Positions 19,389 to 20,765 of a DNA stretch of 64,000 nt are shown here, piece by piece. The number at the start of each line of letters is the position of its first letter. The first letter of the stretch is position 1. A program made the translations under genes and the position numbers. The notes under the pieces are model-generated. The model did not search any database. It worked only from the letters and a program-made list of their open reading frames with translations, and was not told the origin of the DNA. Source of the DNA: Elusimicrobiaceae bacterium (GTDB lineage Bacteria > Elusimicrobiota > Elusimicrobia > Elusimicrobiales > Elusimicrobiaceae); assembly GCA_045132175.1 (NCBI GenBank), contig JBGURU010000042.1, positions 59,887 to 123,886 on the forward strand, in the 5' to 3' direction.

Positions 19389-20765
19389 TTATGTATGTGC
19401 TTTTTTCTTACAGCCGCAATTCACGGCGTCAAACTCTGAACCTTGTGCCGTACAATAATCTGCATCTATAGGACAGTGACACTGACACGCCCTGAAATCA
19501 TAATAAGCAACACCGGGGCAAACTTCTTCTGCCTGACATGCAGACGGAACACATTGACAGGGATTAGTACTGGCTATAGCCTGTTCGGCACGGCAATCGT
19601 CATCAGTTAAATTACAAGAACAACTACAAGTAAGCCAATCAAATTCCCCATTAATACAATTTTCTTCTGATTCACATAAACAACGGCAATTTTCTGCATC
19701 AAAACCTACTCCTATTGACTTACAACCATATGATATACTGTCAGCATTTGGACAAGATCCGTCACCTACACATTCACAGGTATCTGGGTCCAAAAACGGT
19801 TTTGAACCGCTACAAACAATTTTCGGATCACATACACAACTGCAATCACTGAGAACTTTTCCTTGGGCTTCGCAAGTTTCTGCGGTTATGCCATTATTGC
19901 AATCCTCTTCTTCCTCGTCCTCACACTCACACTTTGTTTTATTAAAAACTTTACCTTGTAATTTACAAGAATCCTCAGTCACACCGTTATTACAACCTTG
20001 TTTCTTATCACACTCACATTTTTCTTCATTAAAGAATTCATCTTCCGCACATTCTGTTGGTATACATCCTTGCTTGCAATCACATTTTGAAGAATCAAAT
20101 TCAAGCCCTTGGCTTGAACAACTTGCGGAAACACTTGAAGGGCATTTACATCTATCATTATCCTCAGGATCAGGGACTGCTTGCCCTGTACAAGAACAAG
20201 CACAACTGTTTGAATTTAATACCATAAAAGCACCGCAAGATTTGCCGCATGTACATTTGCACTCTTCTTCATCTAAAATTTTAGGAGAACTACAATTTAA
20301 ATCACATTCATCATTGAAAGCACTGCCGCATAGTTCACTTAAACTACCGGTATTAACCAAACCTTGTAAATTACTGCAATTATCGCCAGAACATAATGGA
20401 CCCTTGCCGCTTTTATAATTTTTACCCAACATAAAATCATAATTTTTACTTACGGCGTATACACAGAAATTATTATCACTATTATCACCGGCTGAATAAA
20501 TATAATTTTGTGTGGAAATATTTATACCGTCACCTTTCAAAGGAGTATCTAAAGAACTTAGGTCACGGGCATATCTACCGTTAGACATAAAATATTTATT
20601 TTGAGCACCTGCCAGCATATCAAGATTATGCAAGGCATCAGAAACATTTGATCTCTTTATAAGTTTGTTGTATGTCGGGACAGCCATATAAGTTAAAATA
20701 CCAATTATCAATACTGCTGCCATAATTTCCGGCAAGGAATATCCTTTCTTTTTTCTGTTTAACAT
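19389..20765 (-). CDS. Pilin-like protein with large C-terminal cysteine-rich tandem-repeat domain
   Basis: N-terminus KKKG|YSLPEIMAAVLIIGILTYMAVPTYNKLI (prepilin-like, Glu+5). Residues ~140-458 contain at least 11 repeats ending [FL][DN]xxxCxC (ILDEEECKC, VLNSNSCAC, EFDSSKCDC, FFNEEKCEC, VFNKTKCEC...). Confidence 0.75.
   Translation of the reverse strand: MLNRKKKGYSLPEIMAAVLIIGILTYMAVPTYNKLIKRSNVSDALHNLDMLAGAQNKYFMSNGRYARDLSSLDTPLKGDGINISTQNYIYSAGDNSDNNFCVYAVSKNYDFMLGKNYKSGKGPLCSGDNCSNLQGLVNTGSLSELCGSAFNDECDLNCSSPKILDEEECKCTCGKSCGAFMVLNSNSCACSCTGQAVPDPEDNDRCKCPSSVSASCSSQGLEFDSSKCDCKQGCIPTECAEDEFFNEEKCECDKKQGCNNGVTEDSCKLQGKVFNKTKCECEDEEEEDCNNGITAETCEAQGKVLSDCSCVCDPKIVCSGSKPFLDPDTCECVGDGSCPNADSISYGCKSIGVGFDAENCRCLCESEENCINGEFDWLTCSCSCNLTDDDCRAEQAIASTNPCQCVPSACQAEEVCPGVAYYDFRACQCHCPIDADYCTAQGSEFDAVNCGCKKKAHT

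Follow-up and report, generated by a model that had tools for sequence, protein, structure and literature searches.

A predicted modular type IV pilin of gut Elusimicrobiaceae with a tail of tandem cysteine repeats probably related to BR3P and VEGF domains

Here we describe a cysteine-rich protein of 458 residues encoded in a 64,000-nucleotide stretch of the genome of an Elusimicrobiaceae bacterium (contig JBGURU010000042.1, positions 59,887 to 123,886; this whole stretch is hereafter called the window). We consider the protein, with a probability of roughly 60%, to be a modular type IV pilin of gut Elusimicrobiaceae that carries a BR3P-type tail and displays it on a filament. The tail itself probably shares ancestry with the BR3P repeats of animal proteins and the heparin-binding domain (HBD) of VEGF. 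A first-pass annotation of the window had proposed a candidate pilus-tip adhesin of a new type and had considered that the reading frame might be disrupted; the open reading frame (ORF; 19389..20765, minus strand) starts with ATG and reads through intact.

Results

The pilin module

The N-terminal 140 residues are predicted to be a canonical type IV pilin module. The N-terminus reads MLNRKKKG/YSLPEIMAAVLIIGILTYMAVP, with Gly at -1, Tyr at +1, Glu at +5 and a hydrophobic helix thereafter, and we infer that prepilin peptidase cleaves after Gly8 (at the slash). The leader scored 18 bits against NCBIfam TIGR02532 (cut-off 16.3) and 20.6 bits against Pfam N_methyl (cut-off 21.2), to which the homologue P0007 scored 22.8. 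All 24 members of the family described below keep the leader motif, with Tyr, Phe or His at +1. These results uphold the prepilin-like N-terminus that had been claimed for the protein, and the same is true of the pilin-like head, which matched Pfam ComP_DUS with 29.1 bits (cut-off 27.3) and Pilin_GH with 28.0. An AlphaFold2 (AF2) model made with the family alignment has an alpha1 helix at residues 11-62 followed by a four-stranded sheet, with a predicted local distance difference test (pLDDT) score of ~80-86, and Foldseek ranked the type IV pilin of Neisseria gonorrhoeae first among Protein Data Bank (PDB) structures (5vxx_A, probability 0.92, 133 columns, E=0.045, TM-score to the target (TMt) 0.41). 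The protein thus has the features of a type IV pilin, namely a basic leader ending in Gly, a hydrophobic stretch with Glu at +5 and a lollipop fold of helix and sheet. Within the head, TPLK, C101, C125 and C130 are invariant across the family. Seven other prepilins encoded in the window are paralogs of this head, with 27-36% identity.

The cysteine repeat array

A short, cysteine-containing linker joins the head to the array, residues 141-458, which holds 51 of the 54 cysteines of the protein, a cysteine content of 16%. The 19 overlapping CxC motifs form 13 clusters (6 CxCxC and 7 CxC) and so match the 13 CxC pairs counted in the first-pass annotation; the ten repeat peptides it quoted and CEDEEEEDC were all found in the translation. 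We compared the tail with 5000 composition-preserving shuffles. CxC occurs 19 times (8.0 expected), C-X(9-11)-C-X-C 12 times (0.67 +/- 0.8 expected) and [FLWYIV][DNS]x3CxC 11 times (0.31 expected), and none of the 5000 shuffles contained as many of any of these motifs. The strict form C-X10-C-X-C-X(1,3)-C occurs three times, with 0.46 expected and 56 of the 5000 shuffles containing as many.

In the window protein a long half-unit, C-x4-8-C-x9-11-CxC[xC], alternates with a short one, C-x9-11-CxC. The alternation is clearer in the homologues, where long half-units of the form C-x5-6-C-x10-12-CxCxC (~29-31 aa) take turns with short ones of the form C-x10-CxC (~19-21 aa). When 38 bipartite units of ~50 aa were aligned, exactly eight columns were invariant, all of them cysteine. 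The array of the window protein is predicted to comprise about 13 half-units, or roughly six bipartite units with eight cysteines each. The earlier description of tandem units was correct, but their length, given as ~25-30 aa, is somewhat shorter on average (16-38 aa, mostly 19-32). In the AF2 model each half-unit has a short helix and a hairpin, with a pLDDT of 50-73.

Tandem Repeats Finder detected no tandem array in the DNA encoding the repeats, and the best direct repeats were 37 nt long with 65-78% identity. This rules out recent slippage as the origin of the repeats and indicates that they are old and diverged, in line with the diversity at the DNA level on which the first-pass annotation had remarked.

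Probable relationship of the repeats to BR3P and VEGF domains

The tail is probably homologous to the repeats known as BR3P or CXCXC and to those of the VEGF HBD. The BR3P motif is defined as C-X10-C-X-C-X(1,3)-C, and one complete and one incomplete BR3P repeat make up the bipartite layout seen in the VEGF-A HBD and the VEGF-C silk homology domain (PMC10328876). The pilin unit of ~50 aa and eight cysteines likewise consists of one complete (C-X9-11-CXCXC) and one incomplete (C-X10-CXC) repeat, and it shares the cysteine order C..C-X10-CXCXC-X6-C-X11-CXC with the HBD of VEGF-A165 (1VGH/2VGH/1KMX; PF14554). With the tandem repeats of PF03128, found in secreted proteins such as VEGF-C/D (silk-homology domain), Chironomus Balbiani ring 3 sp185 and invertebrate PVFs, the tail shares the C-X10-C-X-C-X(1,3)-C pattern. 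It differs from them in its relaxed spacing (X9-X11, so that the window protein has only the three strict matches), in an extra N-terminal cysteine pair in the long half-unit and in its carrier, which is a bacterial pilin instead of a growth factor or silk protein.

The whole window protein matched Pfam CXCXC (PF03128) at the borderline (15.8 bits, cut-off 15). When the 38 units were searched singly, 11 matched CXCXC (best E 0.002) and 9 matched VEGF_C PF14554 (best E 0.0008). A profile built from the pilin repeats only was searched against 177,635 distinct PDB sequences (E<=10) and found the VEGF-A HBD alone (1kmx/1vgh/2vgh, E=0.0028), with seven cysteines in register; only the repeat profile was sensitive enough for this, and phmmer with the tail alone found no match among PDB sequences. 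The same profile, searched exhaustively against 1.84 billion representatives, retrieved only 57 proteins at E<=1e-3. Among these were an Artemia protein named 'balbiani ring protein 3-like' by NCBI, several proteins in which a PDGF/VEGF cystine-knot signature precedes the repeats, surface-type proteins of the amoebozoans Balamuthia and Dracoamoeba (P0021, P0023) and bacterial lipoproteins that themselves exceed the Pfam CXCXC cut-off. Aligned by hhalign with 84 eukaryotic units, the pilin units gave a probability of 97.3%, an E-value of 1.7e-11 and a score of 43.8. Controls in which the cysteine columns were fixed and the others permuted scored 22.1 +/- 3.5 (maximum 32.1) and reached up to 95% probability, so about half of the signal is estimated to come from ordered non-cysteine positions, with the consensus G-x2-[F/W]-[D/N]-x3-C-x-C. 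In the Foldseek search with the full-length model, structures with the VEGF-A HBD ranked 6-7, namely the neuropilin fusion 4deq (probability 0.96, 1.4 A over 38 columns) and 1vgh (TMt 0.49, 34% identity), both with a non-significant E-value of ~0.8. The likeness to eukaryotic extracellular modules noted in the first-pass annotation is thus borne out by Pfam, by the PDB profile search and by hhalign, and the module is the BR3P/CXCXC repeat.

The likeness could also have arisen by convergence, if bacteria had reinvented a small disulfide framework, and then nothing known of the eukaryotic domains would be transferable to the pilin. Only the cysteines are invariant, the matches are weak when taken singly (E=0.003 for the PDB, around 1e-3 for Pfam and around 0.8 for Foldseek), the cysteine-fixed shuffles still score 22 with up to 95% hhalign probability, and the charge is opposite to that of the VEGF HBD. 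We nevertheless regard convergence as unlikely. The real hhalign score lies about 6 standard deviations above the cysteine-fixed controls, and the pilin and eukaryotic units agree both in the consensus outside the cysteines (G-x2-aromatic-[D/N]-x3-CxC) and in the order of complete and incomplete repeats. Moreover, the VEGF HBD was the sole match among all cysteine-rich domains in the PDB, and the matches grade continuously from bacterial through amoebozoan to animal proteins.

Charge and probable disulfides

The eight cysteines of the VEGF HBD form four disulfides in two beta-hairpin subdomains (PMC3568127), with two disulfides in each of these small subdomains; hairpins are also predicted for the pilin units. 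The number of cysteines in the mature protein is even in 23 of the 24 pilin family members, in which it ranges from 24 up to 282, and the sole member with an odd number stops abruptly in the middle of a repeat. Between strains there was not a single cysteine substitution. The even parity and the homology to a four-disulfide domain point to disulfides rather than metal binding for the cysteines of the tail. The selection on the repeats claimed in the first-pass annotation finds support as constraint, given that no cysteine changed between strains and that the parity is kept in 23 of 24 relatives.

The tail is strongly acidic, with an isoelectric point (pI) of 4.15 and a net charge of about -37. 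Acidity is shared by each of the 12 further family members whose charge was calculated (pI 4.2-4.8; lowest net charge -173). In contrast, the VEGF HBD is strongly basic, with a pI of about 9-11 (PMC3568127); it is present in a single copy and binds heparin and neuropilin, whereas the pilin array is tandem, acidic and bacterial. Because of this difference in charge, a heparin-type or other polyanionic ligand cannot be transferred to the pilin by homology, and the scaffold alone is predicted to be common to the pilin array and the VEGF HBD.

The pilin family and other carriers of the repeat

The family defined by the head (prepilin motif and VSDALHN.DM ... TPLK) is small. We found only 9 homologues among 5.8 billion clustered proteins, and in the sets retrieved the family amounts to about 24 proteins, which are 279-1872 aa long and contain from about 5 to more than 70 half-units. 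A scan of GTDB yielded four loci, all in metagenome-assembled genomes of Elusimicrobiaceae from human gut or rumen. Two members, P0014 and P0048, have an extra C-terminal domain beyond the repeats.

The repeat also occurs on other anchors. P0050 (L012 299-1699) is an unrelated prepilin with the leader ...LRA/FTLVETL, a different head, seven BR3P-like repeats and a cysteine-free C-terminal domain, and it is predicted to be a second, independent fusion of a BR3P-like repeat to a pilin anchor. The lipoproteins P0015, P0025, P0033 and P0046 from gut metagenomes have the same CXCXC repeat (e.g. CDKTEETCAEEGKSFDAENCEC) directly behind their anchor and ahead of other domains and score 25-36 bits against Pfam CXCXC, over the cut-off; unlike the pilin they are anchored by a lipobox, their units have four cysteines and lack the third cysteine of CxCxC, and their distal domains are unannotated. 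In P0015 (L011 4001-6187, on a gut-metagenome scaffold of 170 kb) the repeats are followed by an unannotated domain of 515 aa, and the gene is flanked by two serpin genes and a Ser/Thr kinase gene. When the non-repeat C-terminal ends of P0014, P0048, P0005, P0010 and P0015 were tested for known domains, none was found.

CXCXC repeats are also shared by eukaryotic surface proteins. In the Acanthamoeba adhesin MBP1 they lie between the membrane anchor and a distal ligand-binding domain (PMC9692275), and the Balamuthia and Dracoamoeba proteins have them as well. Proteins of the MBP1 type are membrane proteins of type I whose distal domain is a DUF4114 lectin, whereas the window protein has a pilin anchor and no distinct distal domain. 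The order of anchor, repeats and distal domain recurs in P0014, P0048, P0050, P0015, P0025 and MBP1, and by analogy the generic role of the repeat appears to be that of a rigid stalk or spacer between the anchor and a distal domain.

Evolution of the gene

Within its neighborhood, the pilin gene evolves faster than any other. In the related loci the pilin is 30-40% identical to that of the window where hisS/aspS are 91-95% identical; in L001, for example, the GGDEF-EAL gene upstream of the pilin gene has 64% identity and the pilin 34%. Even in L010, from a near-identical strain with flanks 98-100% identical to those of the window, the pilin is only 74% identical.

A codon-level comparison was made with L009 for the 91%-identical allele P0001. 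The two alleles do not differ at any position in nt 1-450, which encode the whole head, and differ by 0.8% in nt 631-990 and by 7.6% in nt 1141-1377. Two further blocks are far more divergent (Table 1). The second of these contains 21 nonsynonymous and 9 synonymous-only codon changes, none of which alters a cysteine. Relative to P0002 there are 3 differences in the first 825 nt, and everything distal to about residue 275 is replaced. This mosaic of near-identical and highly divergent blocks between strains indicates recombination among the distal repeats on a fixed head. A six-frame hmmsearch of the window with filters off revealed no silent donor cassettes of the repeat.

Discussion

A modular pilin and its possible function

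Modular pilins combine a pilin module with an extra C-terminal domain that is not specific to type IV pili, and more than 1200 such proteins with 264 architectures have been described (Raynaud et al. 2021; PMC8179133). The window protein fits this definition, with its head (residues 1-140) and its BR3P-type array (residues 141-458). It shares the arrangement of leader, pilin, short linker and graft with PilB (vWA) and PilC (lectin) of S. sanguinis, CofB of enterotoxigenic Escherichia coli and TcpB of V. cholerae. These known modular pilins have one globular grafted domain, whereas the window protein has a long array of tiny, predicted disulfide-stapled repeats and is encoded by an orphan gene outside a pil locus. 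Calling it an adhesin of a new type was too strong, since modular pilins are an established class and CXCXC is a known Pfam family; it is the combination of a pilin with a BR3P array that appears to be new, both parts being known already. Our literature search found no description of a type IV pilin with a tandem array of the BR3P/VEGF-HBD type, nor any text that considers whether the VEGF-C silk-homology domain has prokaryotic relatives. The portion of the supplements of the modular-pilin survey that we searched contained no CXCXC, IPR004153 or Elusimicrobia entry (PMC8179133).

As we picture it, the protein would be exported and cut by the prepilin peptidase PilD after Gly8, and its alpha1N helix would hold it in the inner membrane. 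Oxidative folding would then turn the tail into consecutive mini-domains, in each of which two disulfides would staple a beta-hairpin, in some cases together with a short helix; the tail would thus have about 25 disulfides and the head 2. The pilin module would enter a type IV filament, most likely at the tip or at sparse sites along it because the C-terminal extension would clash with neighboring subunits; it has been argued from sterics that modular pilins occupy the tip or, given a flexible linker, the filament body (PMC8179133). The filament would thus show a thin, protease-resistant and strongly acidic rod. The distal repeats would be the likely interaction or immune-exposed surface, for example in adhesion to a host or microbial ligand other than a polyanion, because the protein ends in repeats and it is the distal ones that vary between strains. 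By analogy, a role as tip adhesin is plausible; filament processing, assembly, tip location and adhesin function are all read here from the sequence and from the likeness to modular pilins.

Alternative explanations

Several observations weigh against a filament-displayed pilin with a VEGF-like tail. Neither the window nor any of the related loci examined, L001-L008 and L010, has a pilus gene beside the pilin gene, and Elusimicrobia carry many orphan prepilins. Structural support for the repeats is weak (pLDDT of 50-73; Foldseek E-value of ~0.8 for the VEGF HBD), and an AF2 model of one isolated unit (pLDDT 70) had no meaningful Foldseek match in the PDB. The acidity of the array (pI 4.15) is the opposite of the basic charge of the heparin-binding VEGF HBD, so that homology allows no ligand to be carried over to the pilin. 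Finally, dN/dS (the nonsynonymous substitution rate divided by the synonymous one) over the repeats is 0.26, which places the repeat framework under purifying selection with no overall positive selection, the variation being mosaic and recombinational.

The prepilin N-terminus might serve solely as a membrane anchor or pseudopilin stub, leaving the rod in the periplasm or in an envelope coat with no display on a pilus. The gene is indeed a monocistronic orphan far from assembly genes, at least 8 orphan prepilin genes lie within 64 kb and are not all likely to encode filament subunits, and the repeat is used elsewhere with simple anchors (the lipoproteins P0015 and P0025; a transmembrane (TM) helix in amoebal proteins). 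Yet Glu at +5, the whole of alpha1 and the head are strictly conserved, which is more constraint than a plain anchor needs: the head has no nucleotide difference between strains, and many of its residues are invariant in relatives that are 30-40% identical overall. The hypervariability of the distal repeats at the strain level fits exposure to the outside, and the periplasm would have no room for the longest rod, of 1732 residues (P0011). We hold such a role as mere anchor to be improbable. Less probable still is a silk-like matrix, in which the repeats would form intermolecular disulfides and cross-link cells, filaments or biofilm without a specific ligand, as Chironomus BR3/sp185 does; homology to the BR3P repeat of this disulfide-cross-linked silk protein (PMC5816233) speaks for it, but 23 of 24 members have an even number of cysteines, which argues for intrachain pairing of every cysteine and against free ones that could cross-link, and the net charge of about -37 would work against self-association. 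We give least credence to an array that coordinates Zn, Cu, Cd or Fe-S and buffers or senses metals outside the cytoplasm like a metallothionein. CxC and CxCxC are classic metallothionein motifs, 16% of the tail is cysteine with many acidic residues besides, and the host is a strict anaerobe, in which disulfide formation is not guaranteed. On the other hand, cysteine parity is even, the closest solved relative is all-disulfide, each unit has conserved aromatic or hydrophobic positions and predicted beta-hairpins unlike those of metallothioneins, and no metallothionein family appeared among the Pfam or PDB matches of the protein or its units. On the grounds of parity and homology we rejected a metallothionein, and the metal knot offered as an option in the first-pass annotation is unlikely as well.

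Implications

The signature CX10CXCXC of the VEGF-C silk-homology domain is, according to reviews, unique among the proteins of vertebrates, and where it arose in phylogeny is unknown (PMC5816233). The bacterial and amoebozoan relatives, which have significant E-values, widen the search for this origin; they are also small and tractable enough to help determine how a tandem BR3P array folds. A module thought to be eukaryotic is here placed on a predicted bacterial surface filament protein. Tentatively, the BR3P/VEGF-HBD repeat might be an ancient extracellular stalk that was shared or horizontally exchanged among bacteria, amoebae and animals, and that on the Elusimicrobiaceae pilin lets recombination vary a surface facing host or phage. 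If this were true, it would amount to pilus-borne surface variation that needs no cassettes and to the first prokaryotic relatives of the VEGF-C silk-homology domain. The modular-pilin concept would gain an architecture in which a predicted acidic, disulfide-stapled rod of variable length replaces the globular effector, and a rod of this kind could pass through a secretin. Elusimicrobiaceae are poorly understood residents of gut and rumen with many orphan pilins. Because it evolves fastest locally and is mosaic between strains, the pilin gene is a candidate determinant of interactions with host or phage and a possible strain marker.

Genomic context

Features of the pilin gene and its paralogs are collected in Table 1. 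The gene is predicted to be a monocistronic, independent orphan unit, as it has its own promoter-like elements, ribosome-binding site (RBS) and terminator and is separated from the GGDEF-EAL gene by a tRNA-Arg gene. The promoter candidates are TTGACA-17-AATATT (20826->20798) and the overlapping TTGAAA-17-TATACT (20813->20785); promoter-like sites across the region were not more frequent than in shuffles, and the call rests on position. The terminator-like hairpin lies 29 nt past the stop codon. The opposite-strand tRNA-Arg gene and the promoter rule out co-transcription with the upstream GGDEF-EAL gene.

Table 1. Predicted features of the pilin gene and related prepilin genes in the window
Feature	Coordinates	Strand	Basis
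Class III (prepilin) leader MLNRKKKG, residues 1-8, predicted cleavage after Gly8	20742..20765	-	TIGR02532, N_methyl
Mature alpha1 helix, residues 9-62, hydrophobic alpha1N	20580..20741	-	AF2 helix 11-62 and family alignment
Globular pilin head, residues 63-140, 4-stranded antiparallel sheet	20346..20579	-	AF2, Foldseek, Pfam
Acidic BR3P/CXCXC-type repeat array, residues 141-458 (318 aa)	19392..20345	-	Pattern, statistics, BR3P/VEGF-HBD relationship, charge
Variable block 1, residues 151-210 (nt 451-630), 17.8% nt divergence from P0001	20136..20315	-	Codon-level comparison
Variable block 2, residues 331-380 (nt 991-1140), 33% nt divergence from P0001	19626..19775	-	Codon-level comparison
Candidate sigma-70-type promoter(s) of the pilin gene	20785..20826	-	Consensus scan, 10/12 matches each
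RBS AAGAGAGG, strong, 5 nt before the ATG at 20765	20771..20778	-	Direct sequence reading
Intrinsic terminator-like hairpin CGCCC-AAAAAGC-GGGCG, then T-run	19334..19360	-	Terminator scan and direct reading
Orphan prepilins	818-1375(+), 9102-9647(+), 10562-11113(-), 15703-16254(+)		Paralogs of head
Orphan prepilins	25655-26125(-), 33475-34002(-), 52644-53204(-)		Paralogs of head

The gene order around the pilin gene was kept in every related locus with enough flanking sequence. It runs from an ORF of 189 aa through the gene for a 517-aa protein with a TM helix and a cysteine-rich region, which is divergent from a dCache-GGDEF-EAL gene, to the pilin gene, followed by hisS and aspS or by rplU and rpmA. 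The dCache-GGDEF-EAL protein (20902-23208(-)), a predicted enzyme of cyclic di-GMP turnover, is encoded directly upstream of the pilin in the window and in L001-L008 and L010, and a regulatory link from this gene to the pilin is possible. The spacer between the two genes holds the tRNA-Arg(CCT) gene (20847-20921(+)), which is oriented opposite to them and shares ~20 nt with the end of the GGDEF-EAL ORF. The 517-aa protein (23236-24789(+)) has an N-terminal TM helix, a low-complexity stretch rich in Lys and Ser and a different cysteine-rich ectodomain; it is syntenic in 8 of 8 related loci with 43-47% identity, and it matched neither the BR3P repeat profile nor Pfam, NCBIfam or PDB sequences.

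Elusimicrobiota retain the prepilin peptidase PilD and Tad-like/type IV pilus loci (PMC8809381), and pilins are their sole appendage genes (PMC8809381, PMC11257099). The 64-kb window contains neither PilD nor pilus-assembly genes, and a search of the window and of the homologues' contigs for a minor-pilin operon or assembly genes found none. Co-occurrence with minor-pilin operons, which the first-pass annotation had suggested looking for, therefore fails: the pilin gene is monocistronic and flanked by the tRNA gene, the GGDEF-EAL gene and hisS. The minor pilins of known tip complexes (PilV/W/X/FimU, GspH/I/J/K) are encoded in operons with other minor pilins and assembly genes, in contrast to the orphan pilin of the window. 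The seven further orphan prepilin genes (~156-186 aa, 4-8 cysteines each, near-identical N-termini) form an unusually dense set of pilin paralogs; they are dispersed between housekeeping genes, and assembly machinery is absent from their surroundings.

Genes for natural competence, dprA and a comM-like Mg-chelatase/MCM-type ATPase gene, lie side by side (42517-45173(-)) in this genome with many ComP_DUS-like heads. An ORF of 1118 aa (46287-49643(-)) has a DnaA-type AAA+ ATPase at residues 733-889 only, its large N-terminal part being unannotated, and two ORFs of 708 aa (36297-38423(-)) and 367 aa (45174-46277(-)) had no Pfam match at E<=1e-4. A cluster of dnaA, dnaN, gyrB and gyrA occupies 55052-62957, and the G+C content falls to 26-30% at 60-64 kb. 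The window is predicted to span the region of the chromosomal replication origin, and BamA and LpxA/C/I mark the bacterium as a diderm.

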